Source: Candidatus Adlerbacteria bacterium
Lineage (GTDB): Bacteria; Patescibacteriota; Minisyncoccia; Phycocordibacterales; SBAW01
NCBI GenBank assembly: GCA_026397405.1
Contig: JAPLUW010000001.1
Span: 239,825-303,824 of the forward strand
DNA: 64,000 bases
Reading direction: 5' to 3'
The notes beneath the pieces were generated by a model. That model was not told where the DNA came from, did no database searches, and was given only the letters and a program-made list of their open reading frames with translations. The position numbers and the translations under genes were made by a program. This document shows positions 13,125-35,310 of the stretch, piece after piece; the first letter of the stretch is position 1, and each line of letters starts with the position of its first letter.

Positions 13125-14222
13125 CTACCTGTTCATCGGCATTGCGAGGTAGAAGAATGACTCGTCTCCTGCATCTTTAATAAGCATAGGCTTCCCTGGG
13201 CCGTTGGCGTGCAGGCGCACACTGTCACCCGAAATAGACTGCAGGCTATCTGCTAGGTAGCGGCCATTAAACGACATAGTTAGTTCGTCGCCAGAAATTG
13301 TTGCGCGCACGGTTGATGTTTGCTCGCCCACGTCGGGGTTGCGGGACGAAAGCAGTACTGACTTTTTTGCCGGCTCTATCGCAAGCGACACCTGAGAAAA
13401 TTTGTCCGCAAAAATAGAAAGAGACTTCAAGGCAGTTGAGACATCTTCACGCAGTACAACTGCCTCGGTTGAAAATGTCTTTGGAACAATTTGTCTATAG
13501 TTTGGAAACGCCGCGTCTATGATGCGGCTCGTGTAGTACACATTGCCCACATGGGTCGAGAGCTGGTTTTCATTAAAATATACTTCTGCCTCCCCACCCA
13601 CACTGTCGAGGATGCGCATCAACTCTGCTGCGTTGCGTGCAGGTACAAGCAACTGCGGTGTACTCCCCCCACCCCGCAGTGGTACGGTTTTTTCCGCAAG
13701 GCGGAACGAGTCTGTAGCAACTGCTGTAAGCTTTCCGCCTTCGCCAAACAACAAAACACTCTGTAATTCCGGTTTTACAGCTGAAAGTGACGCGCAGTAC
13801 GCAACACTGCGAATAGCCTTAGAAAGGTCGCTGCTTTTTGCAGTAAACGACTTCTCTGCCGAAACGCGTGGCAGTACAGGAAAGTCGTCATGCGGAATTG
13901 TTTTTATCGCAGCCGACGCACGCTCAGTTTCAACCTTAAACAATTCACCGACCAGAGACCCCGACACTACTTTGCCGCGCGCATTGTTTAAAAAGCCCGC
14001 AAAAATCGTTGCAGGAAGTGCCGCGATACCGTCTGCACTCACTTTTGCAGGCACGGTTATCTCAACTCCACATTCGAGGTTTGTTGCACGTAATGTAAGA
14101 CGGCCGTTTTCTGCAGCGAGTAGTATTGCAGAAAGTGCCGGTAGGTTTGCGCGGCGTTCAACAAAACGTGCAGCTGTTGCAACTGCCTGGGACAACTCGT
14201 CGGTATTAGTTTCAAATTTCAT
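13125..14222 (-). CDS. dnaN: DNA polymerase III beta sliding clamp
   Basis: 365 aa with a three-domain clamp-like sequence. It sits immediately downstream of dnaA. Confidence 0.9.
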   Translation of the reverse strand: MKFETNTDELSQAVATAARFVERRANLPALSAILLAAENGRLTLRATNLECGVEITVPAKVSADGIAALPATIFAGFLNNARGKVVSGSLVGELFKVETERASAAIKTIPHDDFPVLPRVSAEKSFTAKSSDLSKAIRSVAYCASLSAVKPELQSVLLFGEGGKLTAVATDSFRLAEKTVPLRGGGSTPQLLVPARNAAELMRILDSVGGEAEVYFNENQLSTHVGNVYYTSRIIDAAFPNYRQIVPKTFSTEAVVLREDVSTALKSLSIFADKFSQVSLAIEPAKKSVLLSSRNPDVGEQTSTVRATISGDELTMSFNGRYLADSLQSISGDSVRLHANGPGKPMLIKDAGDESFFYLAMPMNR

Positions 14223-14420: not shown

Positions 14421-15764
14421 TCATTTCAACATAAGGCGAATCTGGTTTAACTCGCTTGTGAGCACGCTGTCGCTACGTAGGTCGTTTTTTATTTTTTCGC
14501 ACGAGTGGATAACTGTTGTATGGTCGCGGCCGCCAAGCTTCTCCCCTATTGTGGGGAATGATATCTTAAAATCTTCGCGTAACAAAAACATAATCATCTG
14601 GCGAGGGCGCACCACTTCTTTACGGCGTGTTTTTTCGTAAATACTGTGTTCTTCGACCCCGTAGAAGGCAGAAATTGTGCGCACTACCTCCTGCACAGAG
14701 ACCGCCTTTTTTGTAGCGTTAGATGCGCCACGCAACAACATTTTTGCGTCGTTTATTGTTAGCGGCTCGCTGCCGCGTAGCTCGAATTGTATAAGGAGTA
14801 GATTTAATGCACCCTCCAGTTCACGGACGTTACCCTCAACCGCAGTTGCTAAGTATTCGAGCACTTCGTCGGGCAAAATAACGTTGTGTGCAGAGGCTTT
14901 TGTGCGGACAATAGCCAGACGTGACTCATGGTCGGGCGGGGTTACGGAAAGTATCATCCCCGCGCTAAAGCGCGACTTTAAGCGGTCTTCCAAGTTTTGT
15001 ATAACGTTTGGATGTTGGTCGGAAGAAAAAATCAGCTGTTTGTTACTGTCATGGAGGAAGTTAAACAAATGGAAAAATTCTTCTTTTGTTTTTTCCATCT
15101 TCGCCAAAAATTGCACGTCGTCCATGATAAGCAAGTCGTACTGGCGGTACTTTTCTTTAAACGACTGCACCTTCCCTGCTTGTAGTGATGACACATAGTC
15201 CATGGAAAACTTTTCCGAGGTTACGTACTGTACTTTTCGCTCAGGTGCGTTAACGCGGAAGTGGTTCCCTATCGCCTGTATAAGGTGTGTTTTACCCAAA
15301 CCGGTGGGGCCGTAGATAAGTAATGGGTTGTACGCGCTACCTGGCTTGCGTATAACGGCTTGTGCGGCTGCGTGCGCAAGTTCGTTAAAGGGCCCTACAA
15401 CAAACGACTGTAGGGTAAAACGCGGGTTCAGGTTTGTTTTTGCATGAACGTTTTCAAGCGGCAACTCCGACGGTGCTGCTGGTACGGTACGTGCATCTTC
15501 TACATTTTTTTTAGGTCCGCGTGAGATTATATATTCGACTGTGCGTACCGTGTCGGAAAGTCCGCGCAGTGAGCGTAAGATATCTTTATGAAATTTAGTC
15601 GAAAGCCAGTCGCGAGCAAATTGTGATGGTACACCAAGGTAGACTGTCCCCTCTTCGACTCGTACTACGTGTGTGTCTTTAAACCAGGTATTAAAATTTG
15701 GCTTGGAGATAGTAAGTTCAAGCTCAACAAGTGCGTTTTCCCAAAGTTCTTTCGTGGTGGTCAT
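14421..15764 (-). CDS. dnaA: chromosomal replication initiator DnaA
   Basis: AAA+ GPTGLGKTHL and the C-terminal DnaA signature (GGRDHTTVIHS) are present. The start was trimmed to MTTTKELWENA; the ORF-track start at 15911 would overlap rpmH. Confidence 0.95.
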   Translation of the reverse strand: MTTTKELWENALVELELTISKPNFNTWFKDTHVVRVEEGTVYLGVPSQFARDWLSTKFHKDILRSLRGLSDTVRTVEYIISRGPKKNVEDARTVPAAPSELPLENVHAKTNLNPRFTLQSFVVGPFNELAHAAAQAVIRKPGSAYNPLLIYGPTGLGKTHLIQAIGNHFRVNAPERKVQYVTSEKFSMDYVSSLQAGKVQSFKEKYRQYDLLIMDDVQFLAKMEKTKEEFFHLFNFLHDSNKQLIFSSDQHPNVIQNLEDRLKSRFSAGMILSVTPPDHESRLAIVRTKASAHNVILPDEVLEYLATAVEGNVRELEGALNLLLIQFELRGSEPLTINDAKMLLRGASNATKKAVSVQEVVRTISAFYGVEEHSIYEKTRRKEVVRPRQMIMFLLREDFKISFPTIGEKLGGRDHTTVIHSCEKIKNDLRSDSVLTSELNQIRLMLK

Positions 15765-15865
15765 GGAGGAGGTGGCCTTAAGGATACGCGGGATAGTCTG
15801 GCCCGTCAAAAAACGCGCTTTGTGCACAAGTTGTGGAGAAACTGGGTATAGAGTATATTTGACAC

Positions 15866-16000
15866 ATGTCGCAAACCTACCAGCCAAAAAAGCGTAAGCG
15901 CGCACGTGCACACGGGTTCCTTAAGCGTGCCCGCACCCCAGGGGGTCAGAAAACCGTTGCCCGCAGACGCCACAAAGGCCGCGCTCGTGTAACAGTCTAA
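15866..16000 (+). CDS. rpmH: 50S ribosomal protein L34
   Basis: A 44-aa [47 protein letters not shown], found by reading the sequence. It is below the ORF-track size cutoff. Confidence 0.85.
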
Positions 16001-16325: not shown

Positions 16326-17042
16326 ATGTTTCATACTTTTCTTATAAACCCCATATACAACGCGTTTATTTACCTTATTGGTGTTATGCCAGGAGGAGAC
16401 GTGGGTCTGGCAATTATCGCGATGACGCTGCTTATACGTATAGTGTTTTACCCGCTGTTTGCATCCAACATCCGTACCCAGATGGGCATGCAGGCAGCGC
16501 AGGTGGAGTTGAACGAGATAAATAAAAAATACAAAGACAACGCAGACGAACGTGCAAAGCGCACGATGGAGTTATTTAAGCAACATAAAGTGCGGCCACT
16601 CAGCGCTTTTTTCGCACTACTTGTGCAGATACCAGTATTTTTAGCCCTCTACTACGCGTTCTTCCGCGAAGATCTGCCTAAAATAGCTACAGAACTGCTC
16701 TATTCGTTTGTGTCGGTACCCACGGTAGTAAGTACCAACTTTTTTGGTTTAATCGACCTGTTACTCAAACACAATATTTTCCTTGCTGTGGTGGTTGCCT
16801 TGCTGCAGTACGCAGTTATTAAACTTTCTTTGTTTCGCACAACCGCTGTTGCGACTGGCGTAGACCCAGAAAAAGAAATGAGCCAAAAGCTCCAGCAGGG
16901 CATGATGCTGTACTTCCTGCCCGGGCTTATGGGCGTTGTATCTTACACGCTCCCTGCGGCAGTTGGCATATACTTTGCCGCAGGTAGCGTAATTTCATTA
17001 GGGCAAGAATGGATAATCCAGCGCCAGATGCAGAAAAAATAG
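16326..17042 (+). CDS. yidC: membrane protein insertase YidC (short form)
   Basis: 238 aa with 5 TM and the conserved YidC/Oxa1 core. Confidence 0.9.
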   Translation: MFHTFLINPIYNAFIYLIGVMPGGDVGLAIIAMTLLIRIVFYPLFASNIRTQMGMQAAQVELNEINKKYKDNADERAKRTMELFKQHKVRPLSAFFALLVQIPVFLALYYAFFREDLPKIATELLYSFVSVPTVVSTNFFGLIDLLLKHNIFLAVVVALLQYAVIKLSLFRTTAVATGVDPEKEMSQKLQQGMMLYFLPGLMGVVSYTLPAAVGIYFAAGSVISLGQEWIIQRQMQKK

Positions 17043-17581: not shown

Positions 17582-18790
17582 CTAGAGTCGCACACCCCAG
17601 AGCGAATGGTCTCCGCGAGTGATAAATAGTAGATACTTTCCGTCTGGCGACACCCCAAGTTGGTCAATGGGCGCGCTTGGTCCCCCATTGCCCGGCAACG
17701 TTACCACAACTCCTCCTCCACTATTTGCATCAAATTCTACAATACTGTCCGCCGTTTGTACGAGCCCTTGGTGCCACAAGTCTATGTAGTTTTGGGGTTG
17801 GGTATCGAGCGGCAGTGCGCAGTACAACGTATCGGCTGCAGTGCTGGCCCAAACACATTTTTCGGGCAGTGGTGTTTTTAAAATGTTAGCGTCTCTGCCT
17901 GCTTCAATGTCGTGTATATAGGTGTGCGGTGCGCTGCCGCTACCTGCGTTTGTTTGGTACACAACTTTTGTAAAGGTATTGTTTGCAATCGCCGACAACC
18001 CCGGGGTGTAGAGCAGTGGTGAAAGCCCGCCAGTTTTTGCGTTTATAGAAAATGCGATACCTGGCACCCCTGCGGCACTCTTTGTTTGTGCAATAAGTGC
18101 ATTTTGTGCAGGCCAGGAGAGTAACATTTGTGAAAGCGGCAGAGAAAATAGTTTTTTGCTACCTGTGCCGTCTATGTTTGCTGTAAATGCATTTGCACCA
18201 GTGGCAGTCGTAACTAGATACGCAAGGCTATGTTTGTCAGGCGACACCGTAAGTGACTCCATGCCGTTTGGCAAAAATTGCATACGGGGAGGTATGGCGG
18301 CGTTGGTTGAGGTTGCGGGCGTAAACGTTACGTACACACTTTTTATTACACCCAGCTCCACATACTGGAGTATCGTAGAAGTGCCGTGGTTACCCCACAA
18401 CACTTCGGTAAGGCCCGGTATGGTTACGTTAGAAATAGGGCGCACTGCGGCACCAGGCACGTCGACTGCGAGGTCGGATATATGCCCCGTATCCTGCATA
18501 ACGTAGCGGGCAATGGTTGTTGTTGGGTTAGATGTTTGTACAAACGTGGCACCAGCAACTGGCCCGTCGGCAATTTTAAACACACGCTGGAGAACCTGGT
18601 TCCCTACTTGTCCCGGAGTCGTCGAGTCCCCGACATTTGTTTGTGTTGTTGATACATTACCCCCAATGCCAAAAAAACCAGTCGACGGCGTTCCTGTGCT
18701 TGTGTTTGAGTGGAAAAAGAAAAACAGTAACAATAAAATTATTGCTAGAAAAACGAGCCCTCCTACTATGTAAATGGTTTTATTTTTCAT
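17582..18790 (-). CDS. membrane-anchored extracytoplasmic protein, last gene of the T4SS-like operon
   Basis: N-terminal TM (IYIVGGLVFLAIILLLLFFFF) and a Thr/Gly-rich ectodomain. A beta-propeller-like fold is only guessed. Confidence 0.45.
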   Translation of the reverse strand: MKNKTIYIVGGLVFLAIILLLLFFFFHSNTSTGTPSTGFFGIGGNVSTTQTNVGDSTTPGQVGNQVLQRVFKIADGPVAGATFVQTSNPTTTIARYVMQDTGHISDLAVDVPGAAVRPISNVTIPGLTEVLWGNHGTSTILQYVELGVIKSVYVTFTPATSTNAAIPPRMQFLPNGMESLTVSPDKHSLAYLVTTATGANAFTANIDGTGSKKLFSLPLSQMLLSWPAQNALIAQTKSAAGVPGIAFSINAKTGGLSPLLYTPGLSAIANNTFTKVVYQTNAGSGSAPHTYIHDIEAGRDANILKTPLPEKCVWASTAADTLYCALPLDTQPQNYIDLWHQGLVQTADSIVEFDANSGGGVVVTLPGNGGPSAPIDQLGVSPDGKYLLFITRGDHSLWGVRL

Positions 18791-19845
18791 TCAGTTTGTC
18801 CTAATACAGGCACTCCCCACACAGGATTATTTATAGGAAGCAAACATAATTCTCCTGGCGCGATATCCTTACAAGTATAGGCCCCTGAGTTTGCAAGATA
18901 ACTGCCTGCACACGTTGCTGGTACATTATCGAGCGGGTTAACACTTGTCAAAATGTCTTTGCCAAGTAGTTTGAGAGTAGCTGCGTACAACGGGCCAATT
19001 GGTGAAACTAGAAGACTAAGGCCCAGAACCCCAGTGCCAACTTGTATGTTGGTGCCAGTTTCGTACACCACTCCGTTTTTTCCATTTGCTGTTTGGCAGG
19101 CATTTCGCAGTGCTGCGGTTTGATCTTGTGCTGGGGCTGTCGCTATTCCTACCGCTGTTGAAGGATTTAATATGTTGCATGCAGTCACCAACTGGGGGTT
19201 GATGGTATTTAAAATAATATATGAACTTAACAACAGCAACAGCCCCCACACAGCCGCTTGTATACGTCGGCGAGCAAAGTCTTTTTTGTTTACCACCTCC
19301 GAAATCATGTAGGTAATACCTCCAAGTACTAAAAACAGCACTGCAACCATACCACCTAGGTAGATAAGTAGCTTAAAAATCAAATTTATCAGCTGGCAAA
19401 AATTTGTTTGCCCGTTGGTATTTTGGCCAGGGAGTGGTTCAAGCGGAACGTACGTTAAGTTTGGAGAAGAAGCTGAGCAAGCTCTTCCGCCTACAACACA
19501 ACTTGAACCCTCTGGGCATTTGCCTGCAGAATCAGGCATCCCAACAGGAGTTGCTTTTTCGTCGCTAACACACGTAGGTGTTGAAGCGGATATTGTTGAC
19601 TGTGTAGGTGCGGCTGGTTGATTTGTTGCTGCGGGCGCAGGGTTCGCTGGCGGTGTTGTATTTATTTTTGAGACACACTTTCCTGCGCAATCTGCAGCCG
19701 AATTAAATAAAGATGATACACCTGAACGACAACTAGTTACACATGCATTGTATGCCCCGATATCCACACCAGATTGTGAGTCAGCGAACGTGACGTAAGG
19801 TGTCAGTAATGCAAAAAATAGGAAAAAAATTATTGTTTTTTTCAT
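18787..19845 (-). CDS. secreted Cys-rich protein with a central two-helix pilin-like hairpin (TrbC/VirB2-like?)
   Basis: Signal peptide, many Cys. The central LINLIFKLLIYLGGMVAVLFLVLGGITYMI-basic loop-AAVWGLLLLLSSYIIL resembles T4SS pilin topology. Confidence 0.45.
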   Translation of the reverse strand: MKKTIIFFLFFALLTPYVTFADSQSGVDIGAYNACVTSCRSGVSSLFNSAADCAGKCVSKINTTPPANPAPAATNQPAAPTQSTISASTPTCVSDEKATPVGMPDSAGKCPEGSSCVVGGRACSASSPNLTYVPLEPLPGQNTNGQTNFCQLINLIFKLLIYLGGMVAVLFLVLGGITYMISEVVNKKDFARRRIQAAVWGLLLLLSSYIILNTINPQLVTACNILNPSTAVGIATAPAQDQTAALRNACQTANGKNGVVYETGTNIQVGTGVLGLSLLVSPIGPLYAATLKLLGKDILTSVNPLDNVPATCAGSYLANSGAYTCKDIAPGELCLLPINNPVWGVPVLGQTE

Positions 19846-20927
19846 AAGCCAAAGAATGATGAAATTGCCGAACCTGCACTTTGTCCAAATACAAGCTGCA
19901 GCCGTGTGTCTGCAGCTTGTATAAGTTGGGTGGTGTTGGTATTTTGCACAGTCACACCAATGTCAGCCGCGCCACTCCCACTCCCCGTCTGGCGCAGTGT
20001 AAGCATACCCTGTGCCGCTGCAGGGCCGGTAGTTTCTTGGTCGTTTAACTGCCATGTATAGACAAGCGTTTTATTTTTTACACTGTTAGTTGCAAAAAAA
20101 TACGGCTCTGCTTGCAGCGTAATTTCTTTTTGTGCAAGTGATGCCTTGTCCCTCAACCCTTCTTCCAACAACTCTCCGCGCAGAGGGTCGCGTGCGTACA
20201 GCACCACCTGTGGCGCACTTGCAGGTATGACAATGTCCCCTCTTCCGACCGCCGAGTTGCCCGAGTATATAGTTACCGAAATATCCTCCTCTGTTTGTAG
20301 TTGGTCACCTTGGAAGGAAAATGCCGTTTTTCCCAACCCCGACGCGCTTGTGTCCGGGGTGTCGTTTCGCTTCCATTGGAAGGAAAGCTTGGCAGGGTCT
20401 ACCAGTTTGCCTCCGAGCATTACTGTAGGGAACGCTACAACGCGTAGGTTGGAACCTGCGCTGTAGAGTGGTTTGCCTACGTACAAAAGGGGTGTGTAGG
20501 TGTCTGCTTCCCATACTAGGTTGACAACCGACGGGTTAAACACAAAGTCGCGTGTCATCACCCCAAGTGTCGGCGAGTTAATGACAAGGTGGATGTACGT
20601 TACAGCACCCACCCCGCCTGTCGTAAACGTAAACGACTGTTGCCCTGCGAATGCCTCAACCACCTTGCCGTTTTCCTGCCAGGTAAGGCTGGAGTTGCCC
20701 AAAAATTGCCCAACGCCGTTTACTTCTATATTTACTAATTGGTTTGGTCCTGGGTTTTCGGGCGAGATAATAAACTGCAACGGGTCAGGCACCGCCGACT
20801 GCGCATGTGCAAGTGACGTAGTTACAAAAAAAAGTGCGAATATGCCAATGAGTAATTTATGCCGCATGTGGAATTGGAGTAGCCTCAGTAGTGTTGAAAG
20901 ATTGTCTAGGATGTCGGATACCATCAA
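19842..20927 (-). CDS. secreted protein, unknown function (T4SS-like operon)
   Basis: The signal peptide begins at the internal Met (MRHKLLIGIFALFFVTTSLAHA), so the true start is probably 20867. Overlapping start/stop with neighbours. Confidence 0.45.
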   Translation of the reverse strand: MMVSDILDNLSTLLRLLQFHMRHKLLIGIFALFFVTTSLAHAQSAVPDPLQFIISPENPGPNQLVNIEVNGVGQFLGNSSLTWQENGKVVEAFAGQQSFTFTTGGVGAVTYIHLVINSPTLGVMTRDFVFNPSVVNLVWEADTYTPLLYVGKPLYSAGSNLRVVAFPTVMLGGKLVDPAKLSFQWKRNDTPDTSASGLGKTAFSFQGDQLQTEEDISVTIYSGNSAVGRGDIVIPASAPQVVLYARDPLRGELLEEGLRDKASLAQKEITLQAEPYFFATNSVKNKTLVYTWQLNDQETTGPAAAQGMLTLRQTGSGSGAADIGVTVQNTNTTQLIQAADTRLQLVFGQSAGSAISSFFGL

Positions 20928-21564
20928 TATTTTTTAATTCGGCAGAGACCGCAGACCCTTGTCTGTCGCTTGCTGCGTTTTGTTGTACTTGCGTAGACGC
21001 ACCCTTGTCTCGCGCCATCTGCGCGGTCGCTTGGTTTATGCCCACAATGCCAAGCGCTGTGGCACCAAACACAGTTCCTGGTGCTAGTATTTTTGTAAAC
21101 GCCCCTTGTGCACCCCCTTCCAATTTTCTTTGTTCGGCTTTTTTGCGGACAACAGACATCACTGTCATCAAAGTCCACCCAGGTGCGTTGTTGAGGCCAG
21201 GTACAAGTTCCATAATTGCGCCAAAACCTGCATACCGCCCGTAAAACATGCCGCACAAACGGAGCAGTGCAACAAGGAGCAACCCTAGCGTAACGTCAAT
21301 GCACAGGTTTACGGCAATCCCAAGCCCTACACCAATAGGAATTGTATAGACTGCAAGTGCGTCAGCTGGGGTCGCCACTAACGCACCAGCAGCACCTCCT
21401 ATAAAACAACCAACCCGGTCTGCAATAGCTGCACCTAATGCGCACCCCGCAGCACCTCCTGCAAATGTCCCCGGGAATGCGCCAAATAGGAAAAAAGCAA
21501 ACGCCATAAATGCCTGTGCGCCGTCTATAAGAAGTGCAAAAGCTATAAGTGCCGCTCCCTTCAT
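20857..21564 (-). CDS. Gly/Ala-rich polytopic membrane protein (T4SS-like operon)
   Basis: Multiple TM segments and GxxxG-rich. Confidence 0.45.
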   Translation of the reverse strand: MKGAALIAFALLIDGAQAFMAFAFFLFGAFPGTFAGGAAGCALGAAIADRVGCFIGGAAGALVATPADALAVYTIPIGVGLGIAVNLCIDVTLGLLLVALLRLCGMFYGRYAGFGAIMELVPGLNNAPGWTLMTVMSVVRKKAEQRKLEGGAQGAFTKILAPGTVFGATALGIVGINQATAQMARDKGASTQVQQNAASDRQGSAVSAELKNIDGIRHPRQSFNTTEATPIPHAA

Positions 21565-21598: not shown

Positions 21599-23419
21599 CT
21601 ATGCTTGTGCAGCAGCATCGGCTTTTTGTTTGCGAATAGCCAGCACTTGCGAAGGGTCGGAGGTAATTATTTGGTCTTCAGTGTATGAGGCTATCACTTT
21701 TATAGCTACGTGTTTTAAGCCCGCAAAAAATATTCCCTCCCCCACGTCCGACTCGAGCAACAAGTATTTTTCTTCGTCCGAGAGGTTAAACGTTTTTTGT
21801 AAATTGTCTATGGTTGTAGGCGACTGCTTAAGAAGCAACTGTATAGACGAGTTGGTTATCATGGGTAGCCCGTAGGGTGACTTTAAAAAGTCGTCCACGT
21901 CTTGAGTAATGGTTGCAAGCCCCAAGTAATATTTGCGGCCGCGCTTTGCCATACTGTACAAAAACGAGGCGGTGTCTTCCGACTTCATCATCCACCAGGC
22001 TTCGTCTATAACCAACAAGCGTTTTTTGAGGTTTTTGCGTACCGTGTTCCATATATAGTGGGTAATAAGGTACATGGCGACGGGCTTTAGGTCGTCTTCC
22101 ATGTCGCGGACAGAAAATACAACAAACTTTTTGTTGATGTCGACGTTGGTTGGCTGGTTTATAAACCCCGACCATGTTCCTTTGGTGTACTTTGACAAGC
22201 GCTGTCCCAAAGACTCGCTGCCGTCCATGCCGGCCAACACTGTTTCAAAGTCGGAAAGCAACGGAGGTTCTATTTCTGCGAAATTTGAGTCTATAGTGAT
22301 GTCTTTAAGTGCATACGTTTCAGTAATTGCCTTGTCGATAATAGCGTCTTCTTCGGGCGAAAGGCCTCCAAGCATAATGCGGAAGAGCCCTACCAAGGCA
22401 ACAATGTTGGAGCGCAAAATGTCTGCAGGGTTTTCGTCTTCGCGGGGTATCGGCAGGTCAAAGGGGTTGATATGGTGCTCGGACGAAAGGGAGATATTAA
22501 AGTACCGCCCGCCCACTGTCTGGCTCAAAAATTCGTACTCGCGTTCGGGGTCTATGACGATAACTTCGGTGTCAAACATGAGTGTGCGTAAAATTTCGAG
22601 CTTGGTGGTGTAGCTCTTGCCCGAACCCGACTTGGCAAAAATAACTGAGTTGTAGTTTTCGAGGCTAAAGCGGTCAAAGAGCACAAGCGATGCGTTGTGG
22701 CGGTTAACGCCATACAAAATACCTTTGTCGGAGGTAAGGTCGAACGAAACAAAGGGGAAAATTGATGAAAGCGGGGACGAATTGAGTTTGGAATGTACCT
22801 GCAACTCGTCGCGACCAATAGGCAGGGTGCTTTTAAAGCCCTGCTCTTGCTGGAAGAGCGCGGGTTTTACATATATAAGGCGCGACTCGAGCATTGACTT
22901 AATCTCCGACTCGGTTTTGTCGAGCTCTTCGACTGTTTTGCCGTAGACCGTAATGTACACACCCACGTCAAATATCTTTTCCTCTGCTTGCTGCAGTTGG
23001 TCGCGCAGGTCTTCTAGGTCTTTATATGCAGTGTCTAAAATAGGGTCACGCACCAAGCCTTTTTCTTCCCGCGACATAATTTGGCTCTGTACCTCGGCCA
23101 CCTTTTTTTGGAATTTTTTCAAAATGTCTGCGGAGTCTATAGGGTGCACAAAAATAGATATGTCTAAAACGCGGTCGAGGTTAATGACCGGCGCAAACCA
23201 CGAGTCTGTTAGTGTGCGCGGGTACGACATGACAAAAAATGTGCGGGCAATTTTGTCGCCTAAGTTAATTTCCCGCGGGGTGATTTTTAAAGCACTCGGT
23301 GCAATGACATCTTGCAGTTCAAGCACGCCCTGCTTGTAAATTTGCTCGGGCATAATAGGTGCCAGAGACGATGTGCGAGGGTCGTCAGTTTTTGTTTTTA
23401 AAAAATCAAGGAGTGCCAT
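21599..23419 (-). CDS. VirB4/TrbE/CagE-family T4SS ATPase (major fragment)
   Basis: Walker A FAKSGSGKS and Walker B LLVIDEAWWMM. N-terminal FFVMSYPRTLTDSWF motif region. Confidence 0.85.
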   Translation of the reverse strand: MALLDFLKTKTDDPRTSSLAPIMPEQIYKQGVLELQDVIAPSALKITPREINLGDKIARTFFVMSYPRTLTDSWFAPVINLDRVLDISIFVHPIDSADILKKFQKKVAEVQSQIMSREEKGLVRDPILDTAYKDLEDLRDQLQQAEEKIFDVGVYITVYGKTVEELDKTESEIKSMLESRLIYVKPALFQQEQGFKSTLPIGRDELQVHSKLNSSPLSSIFPFVSFDLTSDKGILYGVNRHNASLVLFDRFSLENYNSVIFAKSGSGKSYTTKLEILRTLMFDTEVIVIDPEREYEFLSQTVGGRYFNISLSSEHHINPFDLPIPREDENPADILRSNIVALVGLFRIMLGGLSPEEDAIIDKAITETYALKDITIDSNFAEIEPPLLSDFETVLAGMDGSESLGQRLSKYTKGTWSGFINQPTNVDINKKFVVFSVRDMEDDLKPVAMYLITHYIWNTVRKNLKKRLLVIDEAWWMMKSEDTASFLYSMAKRGRKYYLGLATITQDVDDFLKSPYGLPMITNSSIQLLLKQSPTTIDNLQKTFNLSDEEKYLLLESDVGEGIFFAGLKHVAIKVIASYTEDQIITSDPSQVLAIRKQKADAAAQA

Positions 23420-23438
23420 AAGAAGTTTCTCTATACTA

Positions 23439-24107
23439 TCATTTTGCTACTTGTGTTACCTGCAGGGGTTTTTCAAGTTCGCCTGGGTTAAAGAGTTTGT
23501 AGAAGAGTTCAATAATTTCCTCTGTCCCCAACCCCACCACACGCACCCCGGTACGTATCAACCCTTGTTCTATAACCGAGACGCGTTGTTCAAGCTGGAC
23601 ACGATACTCTTCAAACTGCTCGTCTGTCAGTGCCCCACCCCCGCTCGTACCCTTTGATGGCAACAGCGCGTTTACTATGCCGGTAATACCACTGCCGCGT
23701 GCAACAAGTGCTGGGTCGTAGGGCACTACTATAAAAAAGTTTTTGGTCATAATGTTTGACCGTGCCGTAAAGTCTTTAATGAAGGCAATGTATTCTTGTA
23801 TTTGGATCTTCATCAGGTCGTCCAGTTCAGCCTTGTAACGAGCCTCCAATAAACCAATATATGGCCGGATATCGAGGTCTCGTGACTGTATAAAAAATTG
23901 TGCGCTAAATTCGAGTGAGTTAAGGAAGTTTTGGAACTGCCCAATTATCGCCGCCTGCTCATCCTGCGACTTTAAGGCTAGGTTGATAGACGATGCCATA
24001 AGCAACGACCGTAAACTGCCATCTTTTAAAATAATAATGCCGCCACGTACCTCTTGTATGGGTACAAATTCTTGTGTTGCCTGCGCTTTTACTGTGTTGT
24101 CAGCCAT
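23439..24107 (-). CDS. possible N-terminal segment of a Gram-positive-type VirB4 encoded as a separate ORF
   Basis: VPIQEVRGGIIILKDGSLRSLLMASSINLALKSQDEQAAI resembles the extreme N-terminus of PrgJ/TcpF-type VirB4, from my memory of the family. It is 19 nt and one frame away from the 606-aa ORF. Confidence 0.45.
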   Translation of the reverse strand: MADNTVKAQATQEFVPIQEVRGGIIILKDGSLRSLLMASSINLALKSQDEQAAIIGQFQNFLNSLEFSAQFFIQSRDLDIRPYIGLLEARYKAELDDLMKIQIQEYIAFIKDFTARSNIMTKNFFIVVPYDPALVARGSGITGIVNALLPSKGTSGGGALTDEQFEEYRVQLEQRVSVIEQGLIRTGVRVVGLGTEEIIELFYKLFNPGELEKPLQVTQVAK

Positions 24108-24109
24108 AA

Positions 24110-24541
24110 TTATACGTTATTTGTCTCCTTTAGAGCGGCGTGTTCTTTAATATTGAGCGACCAGGCAAGGTCTTTAAGGCGACTATCGGAAAGTTTAGGT
24201 ACGATGATAGCTGCAGGGGTACTACTTGCCGGAGTTACTACCTGCCCTTCCCCAGCAGAAGGGAGGCGTTGTTTCCACAAATACAATTTGCTGCCGACAA
24301 AATACCCAAACGCATGTTCTATGGCGTGCACAAACGGGCGGCCGTTCACTTCATAAAATGCGAGCGCCAAAGAAAAACCAACCACAGGCAATGAGAGCGT
24401 GATAGTTATATACAGTGGCAATAGGCTAAAAAAAACAAGGCAGAGTCCCCCGCCCCCGGCCAAGTAGATAAATTGCTTCAGCGTAAGAGGGCCGAATATT
24501 TTATCTTCAACTTCGATAAATTGAGGAACTTGGTAGCGCAT
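24110..24541 (-). CDS. PrgI/VirB3-like small T4SS membrane protein
   Basis: MRYQVPQFIEVEDKIFGPLTLKQFIYL is followed by two TM helices. It sits between the VirB6-like gene and VirB4, as prgI does. Confidence 0.5.
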   Translation of the reverse strand: MRYQVPQFIEVEDKIFGPLTLKQFIYLAGGGGLCLVFFSLLPLYITITLSLPVVGFSLALAFYEVNGRPFVHAIEHAFGYFVGSKLYLWKQRLPSAGEGQVVTPASSTPAAIIVPKLSDSRLKDLAWSLNIKEHAALKETNNV

Positions 24542-24584: not shown

Positions 24585-25157
24585 TTACTCAACCGGTTCG
24601 CGATACGGGTCGGTTTTGTATATAGGACGAGGTGCGGCAGTCGCAACTGTTTTTTCTGTGAGCATTTTTTCTGCTGTAGGCATAGAAATTGCGGGTATGA
24701 CAGGGGTAGGTGTCGGAGCACTAGGTCCATCCAGGGGAGCGGCTGTTGCAGGAATGATAGTAGGAAGTGCTGGAGCTGTGGTGACCATAGGTAAGGAAGT
24801 ACGGGGCTCTTCGGGTATGGCTTGAATTTTTTTTGTATCGGTAAAGTGTTTGAGAGCTTCACGTATAGGGGCAAACACTTCAGCACTTATCTCGCCGGCA
24901 ATTACTGCAGCATCTGCGGCTGGTATGGCAAGCTGCTCGGCAATTTGTTGGTTAAATGTGTCGGGGTCAAAAAAACCAAGCATGACAAGCATTGTTTCGT
25001 CTTCCAATTTTCCTACCTGGTCGATATGCAGGCCATGCTTTTGCCCAATAGCGCGAATATGTGTACCCATGTCAGCCGAAAGCACTGCGTCACGCACCTC
25101 TTGCGGTAATTCCGCGAGCCTTTCCTCTATTTGTGTTTTTGTTGAATTCTCTTCCAT
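24585..25157 (-). CDS. hypothetical protein with a Pro/Thr-rich C-terminus (T4SS-like operon)
   Basis: 190 aa, sits in the operon gap. Confidence 0.4.
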   Translation of the reverse strand: MEENSTKTQIEERLAELPQEVRDAVLSADMGTHIRAIGQKHGLHIDQVGKLEDETMLVMLGFFDPDTFNQQIAEQLAIPAADAAVIAGEISAEVFAPIREALKHFTDTKKIQAIPEEPRTSLPMVTTAPALPTIIPATAAPLDGPSAPTPTPVIPAISMPTAEKMLTEKTVATAAPRPIYKTDPYREPVE

Positions 25158-25180: not shown

Positions 25181-27652
25181 TTATGCCTTAGGAATATCTT
25201 TTGGCGTTGGGGGTTTTGTTGGTCCGGTCCGGCGTATTCTCTCAAGAGTGCTTCTCATTGCGGGGACATCAGCTCGATTAATTGTAGGTCTTTCATTTTG
25301 CACAGGTGCTAGGCCATTGGAATTGGTGACGAACCCTGTTCCAGCCCGGCTCTTGTCTACCGGAGTCTGGGGCCTCGTTGGATTTTTTTGTGGTTCTACT
25401 ATGGTTTGTTGCTGGGTAGACTCTCTAGATTTTTGAGTTTGTATTGAAGAGAGAGTCTTTTTCCCTTCTCTTGCCAGCCGGGTCTGTTCCTGTTCTTCAG
25501 TGAGTTGAGCTTTTTCAAGCCTGTTGGTTTCTCGCAACCTCGATGCTATTTCTCTAAAGATTGGGCTGTCTGTTATTTCAGTATTTGCTGCTGTCCCAAG
25601 GCCTCCTGGTCTTTGTGCATCTTGCCGAATAGCAGCTTTGGTTAGAGGGCTGCCTACAATTGGAGGAGTAACTACAGGAGGAGGGGTAGGGATTAATTTT
25701 TTCATGGCATCAATGGCTTCTTCTACGTCACTTTTGCCCTTTGCCATCTTGCGGACCTTTAAGGCTCCTTCAATACTACCCAGTGACGGCCCTACTGCCC
25801 TGCCCAGAATAGGGATATCTCTCGCGAAGCCCAGGTTGCCAAGGCTGTCTTCACCTATTCTCTTCTCATATCGTCCCAATCGCGCATTATCAAGTCGTTC
25901 TATTTTCTTCTTTCCGCCTTCTAAATATGGTCCCAATTGAATTTGTATGGCTTTCAGATCCGCTGCCGCTTTGTTTTTTTCCTCCGGACTAGAGGCTTGT
26001 TTAAAGAGTTCTTTGTTCATAAGTTCTGCAAGCTCCAGAGATTTCTTTTGAGTCTCAAACCCAGCTTCTCCGCCTTTGTGATTTTTCTTTAATTTCGCAA
26101 ATTCTCTCTCCGCTTTTTCTTTTTCAGCCGCAGTACTGTTCATATCCTTTGCGTTAGCCTCAACGGTTTTGGCACGGTCTGCAAATTGTTTTGCAATACC
26201 TCCCTTTCCACCGGCCTTGCCAGCATCAATGCCAACTTTGCCTAGTACTGATTTTAGGCCGGACACTCCTCGCACATCCATGCTTGCACCCGCAACCCCT
26301 TTCAGTGCTGCCATGGTCGGTCGCCCAAACACACTATTTGCCGCAAAGTCGCGCATAGTCTGGCTCCGTGCAAGAGCATTTGCGGCACGTCCCGCGGTGT
26401 TGCGTGCAGCCCAGGCCGACGTGCCCGCGCCCATTTGCGCCGCTTTGCCACCTGCCCAGCTGGCGATATTTTGCCCAGCAAGGCTGGTATGTGAGCTAAA
26501 CGAGTTCGAAAATTTAAGCGCAGCAAACATCATAATAGTAATCAACCCCACGCGCACGCCAACGCCCGCAATTATCAAGATAATAGCCTCAAAACCTTTT
26601 CCTCCTAATGCAGTATAAAAAATAGACGGTATAACCCCACCTGTTCCCGCAAGTTCTTTTAGGAACAAGGTAATTATCAAGAACATAAACAGGAATATTG
26701 CCGGGTAAAATGTTGACTCTATAAGGTGCTTTTGCCAAATCACGTACCCTTCCTTTGCGTACTTAACATGCGGCAATGCTTTTGCTGCAAACGCCAGCGG
26801 TGCAAAAATAATTACAAACCATAGCGTGATAATGCGTATCAAAAACTGTATACCAACAGAGAAAAAGACAAATGCTATCAACGCAAACATAATAGCCACA
26901 GCCGTGTATACAAGTATTTGTATACCTACAGTAGCCAAGAAACCACTAAATCCTGTTTGCTGGTTGGTAAAATTTTGAAACGATTTGTCACTGAGGAGAT
27001 TTTGTACCTGTACTGCGTTCATAATCCCAGCGCTCAAGTCTTTTATAAGTGGGTTGCCGCCCGCAAGTGGCGAGGCTCTGGTTGCGGCAATCTTTGGGTT
27101 GTTTGGGTCGCGTACATCTATAGCGTTATAAAACTGTATGGCTAAAATGTTGCCTGCGTCTATGACAATACGCGTTATAAAAAAGCTAAAGTTAATAAGC
27201 AGCGCCATAGTTACCACCATAGCCAGGGTCTTCATGGTGCCAGAGGTTTCTGCTTCGACAATTATTGTATAGGCAATGTATATAAGGATAAACACAAAGA
27301 CCAAGTTGGCTATGTCACGGACCATTGCCCACCCCTGGGAAAGGAAGTCGAGTGCATACGAGGTGCTGTTGAGCCCCAGCTGCACACCAAAATTAAATAC
27401 ATACGCACCGACATACACGAGGCCGCTTGTCCACGACACCGTAAAGATATACACAATAGATCCGATACATGTATCAACGGAGTTGCAAAAACTAGTACTG
27501 GCAGGAGGTGCACCAGCGCCTTGTGCATGCGCCACTGCCGGTGTCCCAAGCACGGCCAGTGCAGGCGAAAACACAACCACAAGCAACACAAAAGCGGTTG
27601 CAATACGTAATGCAATTTTTAGCTTTGATGAATGTAGAAATTTAGAAAGCAT
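25181..27652 (-). CDS. VirB6/TrbL/PrgH-like polytopic T4SS membrane protein with a long charged C-terminal tail
   Basis: Signal peptide, at least 6 TM in the first 400 aa, then an approx. 420-aa hydrophilic Lys/Ala/Gly-rich region. Confidence 0.55.
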   Translation of the reverse strand: MLSKFLHSSKLKIALRIATAFVLLVVVFSPALAVLGTPAVAHAQGAGAPPASTSFCNSVDTCIGSIVYIFTVSWTSGLVYVGAYVFNFGVQLGLNSTSYALDFLSQGWAMVRDIANLVFVFILIYIAYTIIVEAETSGTMKTLAMVVTMALLINFSFFITRIVIDAGNILAIQFYNAIDVRDPNNPKIAATRASPLAGGNPLIKDLSAGIMNAVQVQNLLSDKSFQNFTNQQTGFSGFLATVGIQILVYTAVAIMFALIAFVFFSVGIQFLIRIITLWFVIIFAPLAFAAKALPHVKYAKEGYVIWQKHLIESTFYPAIFLFMFLIITLFLKELAGTGGVIPSIFYTALGGKGFEAIILIIAGVGVRVGLITIMMFAALKFSNSFSSHTSLAGQNIASWAGGKAAQMGAGTSAWAARNTAGRAANALARSQTMRDFAANSVFGRPTMAALKGVAGASMDVRGVSGLKSVLGKVGIDAGKAGGKGGIAKQFADRAKTVEANAKDMNSTAAEKEKAEREFAKLKKNHKGGEAGFETQKKSLELAELMNKELFKQASSPEEKNKAAADLKAIQIQLGPYLEGGKKKIERLDNARLGRYEKRIGEDSLGNLGFARDIPILGRAVGPSLGSIEGALKVRKMAKGKSDVEEAIDAMKKLIPTPPPVVTPPIVGSPLTKAAIRQDAQRPGGLGTAANTEITDSPIFREIASRLRETNRLEKAQLTEEQEQTRLAREGKKTLSSIQTQKSRESTQQQTIVEPQKNPTRPQTPVDKSRAGTGFVTNSNGLAPVQNERPTINRADVPAMRSTLERIRRTGPTKPPTPKDIPKA

Positions 27653-31130: not shown

Positions 31131-31916
31131 TTAGTGTGAAGAGAGTTCTAGCCACTTCTCTAGCGCTATATCTTCTGCGCGACTGTTTTCTGCAATACTC
31201 GCATTCTGCATAGCAGCTTCAGTTCCGTTTCCAAAAATTCCTGTAATATTTTTCTTTAGCATTTTTCGTTTTTGTGCGAAGCCGCTCTTTAGTACAGCAA
31301 AAAACTTTTTTTCATGCGCTGCGTCCTTAAAATTATTCCGCGAGATATTTGTTACTGCTAAAATTGCAGAGTCGACATCTGGCGGCGGGGAAAATGCTCC
31401 GCGTGGAACAGTCTTTATATATTTCACCTCGCCGTATACTTTGATCGAAAGTGAGAGAATACTTTCCTTTGTGCTTTTTGCAACTCGCTCGGCAACTTCT
31501 TTTTGTACTAAAAATACAAGCGTGCTTGGTTGTTTTTTTTCCTCAGACAAAAATTTTCGTAGCAGTGCGCCCGTGATGTAATACGGAATATTTGCAACAA
31601 GTTTAAAATCTTTCTTCCCTACTATTTCTCCGGCATCAATTTCTAGCGCATCACCTTCGTGTATAAAAAGTTTTTTACTTTGTATCTCGTCCGCAAACGT
31701 TTCTTCCAACACTGAAATTAAGCGGTGGTCTTTTTCAACGGCAACTACTGTCGCTCCGCGCACGAGCAGCTCTCTTGTGAGCGCGCCTTCGCCGGGCCCA
31801 ATTTCTAGCACACACTCCCCTTTTTGTATGCCAGCCGCATCCGCCATCGCACGCAAATATACGGGTGCGTTCAAAAAATGTTGCCCGAGTGATTTCTTTT
31901 TTATAATTTTCTCCAT
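31131..31916 (-). CDS. rsmA: 16S rRNA (adenine1518/1519-N6)-dimethyltransferase
   Basis: LGQHFL and EIGPGEGALT motifs match KsgA. Confidence 0.9.
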   Translation of the reverse strand: MEKIIKKKSLGQHFLNAPVYLRAMADAAGIQKGECVLEIGPGEGALTRELLVRGATVVAVEKDHRLISVLEETFADEIQSKKLFIHEGDALEIDAGEIVGKKDFKLVANIPYYITGALLRKFLSEEKKQPSTLVFLVQKEVAERVAKSTKESILSLSIKVYGEVKYIKTVPRGAFSPPPDVDSAILAVTNISRNNFKDAAHEKKFFAVLKSGFAQKRKMLKKNITGIFGNGTEAAMQNASIAENSRAEDIALEKWLELSSH

Positions 31917-34143: not shown

Positions 34144-35310
34144 TTGTTTCACAATACAGACCCTGCCCAGACGGAACGTGCGTATTCCTCAGGGCGGGCA
34201 AAAAAATCGCTGGTACTTGCTCTTGTGTTAGGAGGAGCGTCTTTTGTATTTTCTATACCACTGCTTGCATCTGCAAGTATTTTTGCGTCTTTGCTACAAA
34301 CAACCGCTGCACAGACCAGCGCAGCGGGCTCTACTTCGAACTCGCAGACCATGGTGCTTTTGGCACCAGCAGTAAACCTCGACCCCCACCCTGCTGTGGG
34401 TGGCGGCGACATTAGTTTGGTGGACGGCTCTGCACTGTTGGCACAAGAAGGTCCGTCGGGTACCGCTGCCGATATTGAAAGTAAGCCGACCAACCCGCAG
34501 GTAAGTGTCTACACTGTCCACGAAGGTGACACACTGTCGGGTATCGCAAAAATGTTCGATGTGACGGCAGGGACCATCCTTGGTGCAAACGACATCAAGG
34601 GTGGCATAGTGCACCCGGGCCAGACACTTATTATTTTGCCAATCCCTGGTATTCAACACACGGTGCTTAAAGGCGAGACACTCGCGTCGTTGGCAAAGAA
34701 ATATAATTCCGACGCAGGCGACATTGCTAAATACAATGCACTCGCACTAGGTGACTCGCTTGTTATTGGTGACACTATTCTTATCCCAGGAGGAGAAGTT
34801 TCTGCACCGGTACAAACTCCTGCTAAGACTCCTACCAAAACAAAGACGCCGACAAATTCGCACTCAAAACTTATCGCGAATATTAAAAACGGTTCAAAGA
34901 CCGAACCATACTTGGGCGGCTCGGGCCCTTCACTTGGCTCGTACTTTACCTGGCCAGTTGCGGGCGGCATCATCACGCAAGGTCTCCACGGATGGAACGG
35001 TGTCGACATTGGCGCAGCAAAAGGTACTGCAATTTATGCAGCTGCAGGAGGCACGGTGATTGTTGCACAGGCGGGCGGCGGGTGGAACGGTGGCTACGGA
35101 AGTTATGTCGTCGTACAACATGGCAACGGCACACAAACTTTGTATGCGCACATGAGCAAAGTGTTGGTTTCTGCCGGTGACAGTGTTGACCAAGGTGACA
35201 CACTCGGCAAAGTTGGTGCCACTGGCGAAGCTACCGGCCCGCACTTGCACTTCGAAGTTCGCGGTGCCGAAAACCCATTTGCCGACATGCCGCTCGGGAG
35301 CAGTAATTAA
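34144..35310 (+). CDS. LysM-domain M23 family peptidoglycan metalloendopeptidase
   Basis: Two LysM repeats (VHEGDTLSGIA, VLKGETLASLA) and M23 motifs HxxxD and HLHFEV. Confidence 0.85.
   Translation: MFHNTDPAQTERAYSSGRAKKSLVLALVLGGASFVFSIPLLASASIFASLLQTTAAQTSAAGSTSNSQTMVLLAPAVNLDPHPAVGGGDISLVDGSALLAQEGPSGTAADIESKPTNPQVSVYTVHEGDTLSGIAKMFDVTAGTILGANDIKGGIVHPGQTLIILPIPGIQHTVLKGETLASLAKKYNSDAGDIAKYNALALGDSLVIGDTILIPGGEVSAPVQTPAKTPTKTKTPTNSHSKLIANIKNGSKTEPYLGGSGPSLGSYFTWPVAGGIITQGLHGWNGVDIGAAKGTAIYAAAGGTVIVAQAGGGWNGGYGSYVVVQHGNGTQTLYAHMSKVLVSAGDSVDQGDTLGKVGATGEATGPHLHFEVRGAENPFADMPLGSSN

Follow-up and report, generated by a model that had tools for sequence, protein, structure and literature searches.

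A TrsD-like protein and a short VirB4 ATPase encoded side by side in a chromosomal type IV secretion locus of a Patescibacterium

Gene neighborhood of the two ORFs

The window considered here, a stretch of 64,000 nucleotides from a Candidatus Adlerbacteria bacterium, carries two adjacent ORFs on its minus strand, whose coordinates, 19-nt separation and change of frame are exactly those reported in the first-pass annotation. The upstream ORF (23439..24107) encodes a TrsD-like protein of 222 aa, a free-standing homolog of the domain at the very N-terminus of VirB4, and the downstream one (21599..23419) a short-form VirB4 ATPase of 606 aa, whose start corresponds to a point ~180-230 residues into full-length VirB4 proteins. 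The intergenic spacer of 19 nt (23420..23438, minus strand) runs from the double stop of the TrsD-like gene to the ATG of the ATPase gene. The two ORFs are in different reading frames, the TGA that terminates the first is directly followed by a TAG, and the ATPase frame, read back from its ATG, meets a stop after 9 codons, such that no coding continuity is left across the junction. The letters of the junction itself contain neither an N run nor a homopolymer. The motifs named in the initial annotation can be read in both translations, namely GGIIILKDGSLRSLLMASSINLALKSQDEQ in the 222-aa protein, and the YPR...W region (SYPRTLTDSWF), Walker A (AKSGSGKSY) and Walker B (LLVIDEAWW) in the 606-aa protein. 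Its estimate that the two products together approach the size of a complete VirB4 also holds, with 828 aa in sum as against 796 aa for PrgJ and 775-807 aa for relatives in which the two parts are fused.

The TrsD-like gene is preceded, at a distance of 2 nt, by a gene for a small membrane protein of the PrgI family (24110..24541, minus strand; Pfam PrgI 37.2 bits, cut-off 27), which is VirB3-like and is found directly upstream in 79 of 80 related loci. Further upstream on the same strand are genes for a conserved protein of 190 aa (24585..25157) and for one of 823 aa marked by several long stretches of hydrophobic residues (25181..27652), both without a Pfam or NCBIfam match and both keeping their position in 69 of the 80 loci; the 823-aa protein, which stands at the position of VirB6, is a putative counterpart of it. 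Downstream, four genes of the same strand (17582..21564), whose synteny is kept in relatives, encode products of 235, 361, 352 and 402 aa, of which the 352-aa protein (18787-19845) contains a T4SS_pilin (VirB2-like) domain (Pfam 27.5 bits, cut-off 26.6). The genes dnaN (13125-14222), dnaA (14421-15911) and yidC (16326-17042) lie on one side of this array and ksgA (31131-31916) on the other. A Pfam scan of the ORFs of ~13-37 kb recovered neither a relaxase nor a VirD4. VirB4, the TrsD-like protein, PrgI/VirB3 and a VirB2-like pilin, all of them components of Patescibacteria-type T4SSs, occur near each other in an order kept among relatives.

Relationship of the two proteins to full-length VirB4

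The 606-aa protein matches the NCBIfam CD1110 VirB4 profile (NF045971) with 391.5 bits (E 7e-117), above the cut-off of 325, but covers only positions 184-733 of its 752. Pfam recognizes P-loop_TraG, AAA_10 and DUF87 in it, and PDB 4ag5, the C-terminal domain of VirB4, matches residues 231-587 (E 1e-42). In alignments with full-length proteins, residues 286-735 of TrwK correspond to its residues 113-553 and residue 228 of PrgJ to its residue 39, which places its start at around residue ~190-228 of PrgJ and ~170 of TrwK. The first-pass identification of this ORF as the ATPase part of VirB4 is borne out by these alignments; the protein is a VirB4 ATPase that lacks exactly the N-terminal domain.

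The 222-aa protein shows relationships complementary to these. It matches the NCBIfam TrsD/TraD profile NF041427 with 35.1 bits (E 1.1e-8; residues 9-128 versus profile positions 13-142 of 201), far below the curated cut-off of 200 bits, and is hence a remote homolog that falls outside the narrow staphylococcal/enterococcal TrsD/TraD subfamily. It further hits the VirB4_plasma profile of NCBIfam at positions 100-233 (E 6e-8) and the CD1110 profile at positions 2-118 (E 2e-3). The full length of the latter profile is therefore not covered by any one polypeptide of the locus, but by two, whose coordinates (2-118 versus 184-733) complement each other without overlap. At 222 aa, and encoded 2 nt after prgI and 19 nt before the ATPase gene, the protein has the layout of a stand-alone TrsD-like protein, and among its 7748 homologs the best 120 are all of 219-235 aa. 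A local Pfam scan assigned it to no family, possibly because that copy of Pfam is without PF26593 ("TraC-like"), a family that is precomputed on homologs 76-95% identical to it and on the N-terminus of the fused proteins.

A phmmer comparison of the 222-aa ORF with PDB sequences gave no match, and a comparison of folds was needed. Its AF2 model (pLDDT 81) retrieved with Foldseek TrwK/VirB4 chains as all of the best 14 hits in the PDB (TMq 0.48-0.58, E 4e-4 to 6e-3), with the next family only at E 0.16. Foldseek gives no residue range in TrwK; the placement of this fold at the N-terminus of VirB4 follows from the profile coordinates, together with a fused homolog that matches TrwK end-to-end (see below). 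The proposal of the first-pass annotation that the protein resembles the N-terminus of PrgJ/TcpF-type VirB4 proteins thus stands at the level of family profiles and fold, but not for the PrgJ sequence itself: neither the ORF nor its profile yielded anything significant against the PrgJ N-terminus (BLASTP E 2.5; hhalign E 0.64). By both sequence profile and predicted fold, the 222-aa protein is homologous to the domain with which VirB4 begins. Some TrsD homologs reach 280-443 aa, and we considered whether these represent partial fusions; however, their extensions are Pro/Gln/Thr-rich, of low complexity and without similarity to the ATPase, and by their composition are presumably disordered.

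Conservation of the split and alternative explanations

For a comparison of orthologous loci we took, out of 421 related species, the 80 that match best. Sufficient sequence follows downstream in 79 of these species-level genomes, and their 79 informative loci together with the window make 80 sequences. The closest relatives of the window locus belong to Ca. Adlerbacteria/Paceibacterota. At all 79 informative loci a stop terminates the small gene, and an ATPase gene with an ATG of its own follows; the ATPase ATG of the window aligns with residue 1 of these orthologs. Across the 80 sequences the spacer between the two genes ranges from 1 to 442 nt (median 4 nt), the relative frames 0, +1 and +2 are seen in 18, 42 and 20 cases, and the stop of the small gene is TAA in 56. 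Likewise, 149 of the 150 best representatives at 50% identity are stand-alone proteins. The dN/dS ratios of 0.042 for the TrsD-like gene and 0.024 for the ATPase gene indicate that both are under strong purifying selection. A Shine-Dalgarno-like motif upstream of the ATPase gene is absent in 77 of the 80 loci (present in 3); given that the genome as a whole displays no Shine-Dalgarno enrichment (7 of 43 ORFs versus 13.7% at random positions), the presence or absence of an independent ribosome-binding site is uninformative here.

Single proteins comprising both parts are nevertheless encountered in Ca. Colwellbacteria, in the form of ~118 clusters of 775-807 aa. In one of these (P0212, 797 aa) residues 5-216 align with the 222-aa ORF and residues 226-795 with the 606-aa ORF. 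The fused forms are 38% and 56% identical to the two window proteins and constitute one clade nested among the split forms (51 of 60 bootstraps), in a neighbor-joining tree rooted weakly on the very distant pSK41 TrsD. The model of another fused protein (P0275) matches full-length TrwK end-to-end (TM 0.62-0.63, E 6e-24); confidence in the fused-protein model is moderate (pLDDT 71, pTM 0.53) and its inter-domain packing tentative. This natural fusion supports the TrsD-like and ATPase parts working as one unit. A 600-aa protein 88% identical to P0212 (P0289) was considered as a recent split within the fused clade and set aside as an assembly artifact, as an N run interrupts the gene in its locus (L083). 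As to VirB6, a match to TrbL_3, itself weak, is seen only in a 509-aa gene two positions further upstream in the fused-form locus L084.

The first-pass annotation had offered a genuine two-polypeptide VirB4, a recent frameshift or nonsense lesion, and a sequencing error as explanations, and of these only the first survives the comparison of orthologous loci, in which related genomes hold two conserved separate genes, i.e. a normal split and not a lesion. A spacing of 19 nt with a change of frame, and the existence of fused versions of ~790 aa in another Patescibacteria lineage, would be in keeping with recent pseudogenization of a single virB4 of ~830 aa, but the split in all 79 informative relatives, with differing gap lengths and all three frames, refutes it. 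The alignment of the ATPase ATG with residue 1 of its orthologs, the double stop and closed upstream frame at the junction, and dN/dS values of 0.02-0.04 all speak against a pseudogene, as do the modest identity of the fused forms and their nested position in the tree; we see practically no chance of such a lesion. An artificial stop or frame change introduced by sequencing or assembly is negligibly probable as well: while such artifacts do occur, as in P0289 with the N run in its scaffold, the junction in the window is free of N runs and homopolymers, and the same two genes, with variable gaps and frames, are recovered from independent assemblies of 79 other species generated by many projects. 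The short spacer might also evoke programmed recoding, with read-through or ribosomal frameshifting producing a single fused VirB4, especially since the first stop is a TGA, a codon that is reassigned in some Patescibacteria classes. However, a TAG directly follows this TGA, and gaps of 1-442 nt, all three frame relationships and the predominance of TAA among relatives (56 of 80) mean that no common recoding signal is possible, making this explanation exceedingly improbable.

An alternative of a different kind is that the ATPase is self-sufficient and the TrsD-like protein an independent accessory factor, for instance a duplicated paralog of the N-terminal domain acting as an adaptor or regulator. 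The 606-aa protein does keep ~230 residues ahead of its RecA-like domain (4ag5 matches from residue 231), TrsD is without any assigned function (PMC12102498), and the long disordered tails predicted in some TrsD homologs suggest additional roles. Set against this, the two ORFs take up complementary, not overlapping, stretches of the VirB4 profile, PrgJ and TrwK carry 170-230 additional N-terminal residues that are missing from the 606-aa protein, natural colinear fusions exist, one of them modeled with an end-to-end match to TrwK, and the adjacency of the two genes is nearly invariant. We hence regard an accessory factor as unlikely. The most satisfactory explanation, which we hold with high confidence, is that the two ORFs are a conserved and functional two-gene VirB4 of the chromosomal T4SS of a Paceibacteria (Ca. 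Adlerbacteria-like) Patescibacterium.

Known systems and implications

The pairing of TrsD with VirB4 in Patescibacteria, and the location of the locus beside dnaA, are already known, having been published in 2025. In that survey (Quiñonero-Coronel et al. 2025, Microb Genom, PMC12102498) TrsD was described as a remote homolog of the VirB4 N-terminus, was counted in 2,221 Patescibacteria assemblies, with virB4 as its neighbor in 1,664 cases, and was reported as essential in the genetically tractable Saccharibacterium Southlakia epibionticum, a Tn-seq result; in Paceibacteria, dnaA, dnaN and ksgA were noted close to virB4. The window locus agrees with these systems in its VirB4, TrsD, PrgI/VirB3 and VirB2-like pilin components, dnaA/dnaN/ksgA context and host lineage, without substantive difference. 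Their framing in the survey does not explicitly invoke a split VirB4 and makes no mention of TrsD-VirB4 fusions, such that the fusion in Colwellbacteria is absent from it. The word TrsD is absent from the main text of Guglielmini et al. 2014 (PMC4027160).

The same gene order, from a VirB3-like gene via TrsD to a short VirB4, is seen in the staphylococcal plasmids pSK41/pGO1 (MPF_FATA, pGO1 subclass), which encode TrsD/TraD and TrsE/TraE. In pSK41 TrsD is of 227 aa, the short VirB4 of 672 aa and the spacer of 14 nt, and the split point is the same, with residue 37 of the 606-aa protein aligning with residue 36 of TraE. However, the ATPases share 24% identity, and the likeness between the TrsD proteins is seen at the profile level only: hhalign of pSK41 TrsD against the profile of the 222-aa protein gives a full-length match (E 5.5e-5, TrsD residues 33-217), whereas pairwise BLAST is not significant. 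Also unlike the window locus, which is chromosomal and lies beside replication origin genes, pSK41 is conjugative and encodes a relaxase as well as a coupling protein. Megaplasmids of Pontibacillus and B. thuringiensis display the order VirB3-like/PrgI, TrsD and short VirB4 as well. PrgJ (pCF10), TrwK (R388) and the fused Ca. Colwellbacteria proteins possess the domain content of both window proteins summed, but in one polypeptide instead of two.

In the window the two genes follow one another closely, in the same orientation, behind the VirB3-like prgI, and all three, prgI, the TrsD-like gene and the ATPase gene, are probably co-transcribed. Given the median spacing of 4 nt and the lack of Shine-Dalgarno use, the ATPase would probably be translated by termination-reinitiation or a leaderless-like coupling. 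In the R388 structures the N-terminal domain of VirB4 forms the link between protomers, is membrane-associated and is in contact with VirB3 and VirB8 (roles summarized in PMC12857230). The TrsD-like protein may do the job of this domain by docking, without a covalent bond, to the N-terminal region of the ATPase; in this way the ATPase hexamer would be anchored to PrgI/VirB3 and to the VirB6-like channel.

To a T4SS specialist the feature should come as no surprise, being real but ordinary. For annotation, we suggest the name TrsD-like protein, or VirB4 N-terminal-domain protein, for the 222-aa product and VirB4 ATPase for the 606-aa product, with neither flagged as a pseudogene or frameshift. 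Viewing TrsD as a detached N-terminal domain of VirB4 yields a concrete, testable hypothesis on what this protein does, for which the Colwellbacteria fusions serve as a natural control. More speculatively, and with rather low confidence, the covalent link between this domain and the ATPase might be evolutionarily labile, having been lost once in an ancestor common to pGO1-type plasmids, Bacillota megaplasmids and Patescibacteria, which are split at the same point, and then restored in Ca. Colwellbacteria, with a free TrsD perhaps offering what a fused VirB4 cannot. In the only Patescibacterium studied by genetic means, the T4SS is indispensable for epibiotic life (cited in both PMC12102498 and PMC12857230). 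On this view, a free TrsD could have a separate stoichiometry or let the ATPase be docked in a regulated manner on the PrgI/VirB6 platform at the membrane, and this might bear on the non-conjugative, host-dependence function of the T4SS in Patescibacteria.

The small and large ORFs as parts of one VirB4

Two minus-strand ORFs, one of 222 aa (23439..24107) and one of 606 aa (21599..23419), lie where the first-pass annotation had placed them, in different frames and 19 nt apart. The motifs it had named are likewise present in the translations: the small protein has IIILKDGSLRSLL…INLALKSQDEQ, the large one SYPRTLTDSW, GSGKS (Walker A) and VIDEAW (Walker B). The small ORF ends in a TGA directly followed by TAG, and a stop 9 codons upstream of the ATPase ATG closes the ATPase frame; hence, the junction hides no continuous reading frame.

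The 606-aa ORF matches the NCBIfam model for CD1110-type VirB4 with 391.5 bits (E 7e-117; curated cut-off 325 bits), covering only profile positions 184-733 of 752, and aligns with 4AG5, the crystallised VirB4 C-terminal domain (1e-42). In the alignment with TrwK (R388) residue 286 of the latter falls at query residue 113, indicating that the ORF lacks roughly the first 170 TrwK residues; residue 228 of PrgJ (pCF10, 796 aa) pairs with its residue 39. For the 222-aa ORF the NCBIfam models matched are TrsD/TraD (1e-8), mycoplasma VirB4 at positions 100-233 (6e-8) and CD1110 VirB4 at positions 2-118 (2e-3), the last being exactly the part of the CD1110 profile that the 606-aa ORF leaves uncovered. 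With an AlphaFold2 model of the 222-aa protein (pLDDT 81, pTM 0.69) the top 14 PDB matches are exclusively TrwK/VirB4 chains (E 4e-4 to 6e-3, TM 0.48-0.58), the first other family appearing at E 0.16. On these results the small and the large ORF are complementary pieces of a single VirB4, as had been proposed from the sequence alone. A Pfam-A scan of the 222-aa ORF returned no family, probably because the library used did not contain the PF26593 model; PF26593.2 ('TraC-like') is precomputed for homologues 76-95% identical to this ORF.

Conservation of the split among relatives

Homologues of the 222-aa protein number more than 7,700; the top 120, from Ca. Adlerbacteria, Paceibacterota and other Patescibacteria, share 76-95% identity with it and are all 219-235 aa long. 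A relative is encoded in 421 species of the species-representative genome collection, and the comparison below covers 80 loci. In all 79 loci with sufficient downstream DNA the small gene stops and is followed by a separate ATPase gene, whose ATG aligns to residue 1 of the window ATPase. Over these loci and the window the spacer measures 1-442 nt (median 4); 18 of the 80 sequences have relative frame 0, 42 have +1 and 20 have +2, and the small-gene stop is mostly TAA. In the comparison with the closest relative, locus L001, the small gene has a dN/dS of 0.042 and the ATPase one of 0.024. The gene order VirB6-like, orf190, PrgI, TrsD-like, VirB4, orf235, orf361, pilin-like, orf402 is kept over related loci.

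The first-pass annotation had weighed a genuine two-polypeptide VirB4 against a frameshift or nonsense lesion and a sequencing error. Neither a recent frameshift nor a sequencing error nor a recoding signal common to the loci could produce such variation of spacer, frame and stop over the relatives, all 79 of them split. The lesion and error readings are refuted, and the split VirB4 is a real feature of the window. Independent ribosome-binding sites had been suggested as the mark of a normal split. Of the 80 loci, just 3 have a Shine-Dalgarno-like motif ahead of the ATPase gene, but such motifs are found upstream of 7 of 43 long window ORFs versus 13.7% of random positions; in the absence of enrichment this criterion is inapplicable, and the Adlerbacteria host apparently does not rely on SD-led initiation.

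Fused forms and plasmid counterparts

Cluster representatives at 50% identity, searched exhaustively, gave 2,074 matches. The best 150 (33-79% identity) include 149 stand-alone proteins, and those of greater length gain only Pro/Gln/Thr-rich low-complexity tails, presumably disordered. These tails, C- or N-terminal and about 90-220 residues long, occur in a minority of stand-alone proteins (P0155, P0170, P0188, P0244, P0254 and others). The sole fusion among the 150 is P0212 (797 aa), whose residues 5-216 align with the small ORF (38% identity) and residues 226-795 with the ATPase (56% identity). Used as a query, it recovered about 118 clusters (90% identity) of fused proteins of 775-807 aa (P0212 and P0271-P0389) with PF26593 ('TraC-like') and P-loop domains; the source-named matches are mostly labelled Ca. 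Colwellbacteria, one such gene lying at 3453-5852 of L084 (Ca. Colwellbacteria, JAUYKE010000021.1). The AF2 model of the fused P0275 (pLDDT 71, pTM 0.53) superposes end-to-end on full-length TrwK (TM 0.62-0.63, E 6e-24). A neighbour-joining tree built on the TrsD-like domain, and weakly rooted with the far-removed TrsD of pSK41, places the fused sequences within the split ones, as a single clade in 51 of 60 bootstraps, which suggests that the fusion may be secondary. An apparently split member of this clade, P0289 (600 aa), is an artefact of an N run that breaks its N-terminal domain (about 1282-1700 of L083, CAYJCP010000001.1). TrsD-VirB4 fusions are not mentioned in the 2025 survey of Patescibacteria T4SS (PMC12102498).

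The Staphylococcus aureus plasmid pSK41 has the order VirB3-like gene, trsD (227 aa) and the VirB4 gene TraE (672 aa), with a trsD-TraE spacer of 14 nt. The alignment of the ATPases starts at window residue 37 and TraE residue 36 (2e-33), and pSK41 TrsD aligns with the small-protein profile over nearly its whole length (E 5.5e-5); hence, the split point is the same in both. By tblastn, stand-alone relatives were found in 49 plasmid records, the organisms listed being mostly Bacillota, with a few Actinomycetota, Embleya among them, and one haloarchaeal genus, Haladaptatus. As in the window, a PrgI-position gene, a TrsD-like gene and a short VirB4 follow one another in Pontibacillus (L085 4541-7563, plasmid NZ_CP062975.1) and B. 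thuringiensis Bt407 (L086 4558-7824, BTB_502p), the upstream small gene being annotated as PrgI in Bt407 only. Both megaplasmids are typed 'non-mobilizable', and their TrsD-like genes are annotated 'hypothetical protein'.

Genomic setting and proposed role

T4SS with TrsD have been described in Patescibacteria by Quiñonero-Coronel et al. 2025, Microb Genom (PMC12102498), who treat TrsD as remotely homologous to the VirB4 N-terminus and found it to be the commonest T4SS component (2,272 homologues spread over 2,221 assemblies, 1,664 being virB4-associated), and essential in Ca. Southlakia epibionticum. They report PrgI/VirB3, VirB6 and VirB2-like pilins near virB4, and the window locus shares PrgI and a T4SS_pilin-domain protein. 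In the latter (352 aa, 18787-19845, minus strand), which is far longer than a canonical VirB2 pilin, a long N-terminal region rich in Cys and Pro precedes the T4SS_pilin (VirB2-like) domain, located C-terminally at residues 148-215. Between it and virB4, also on the minus strand, lie a 361-aa ORF with a TTG start (19842-20927) and a glycine-rich, hydrophobic 235-aa ORF (20857-21564) with a weak glycine-zipper match; the former overlaps the latter, upstream ORF by 71 nt, and its true start is probably a later codon. Paceibacteria virB4 lies close to dnaA, dnaN and ksgA (PMC12102498), and the window likewise has dnaN (13125-14222), dnaA (14421-15911), yidC (16326-17042) and ksgA (31131-31916) flanking the T4SS locus, so that the cluster adjoins the presumed replication origin. 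VirB1-like or cell-wall hydrolases with LysM/Peptidase_M23 domains are virB4-associated in Paceibacteria (PMC12102498); a plus-strand LysM and Peptidase_M23 gene (34144-35310) lies about 7 kb past the VirB6-like end of the locus and about 10.7 kb from virB4.

Complementary homology, fold, adjacency, conservation, purifying selection and natural fusions are all demonstrated for the TrsD-like/VirB4 pair. With spacers of 2 nt between prgI and the TrsD-like gene and 19 nt between the latter and virB4, the three genes would be co-transcribed and translationally coupled. Protomers within each dimer are linked by the VirB4 N-terminal domains, which are also membrane-embedded and make contact with VirB3 and VirB8 (2025 review PMC12857230). 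The TrsD-like protein may attach non-covalently to the N-terminal part of the 606-aa ATPase and take on the N-terminal-domain functions known from TrwK, which would anchor that enzyme to PrgI/VirB3 and to the membrane channel. The two-gene arrangement is the norm in this lineage and already published; modestly new are the finding of a large Colwellbacteria clade in which TrsD and VirB4 are fused, and the fact that the window, pSK41 and the Bacillota megaplasmids share one and the same split point.
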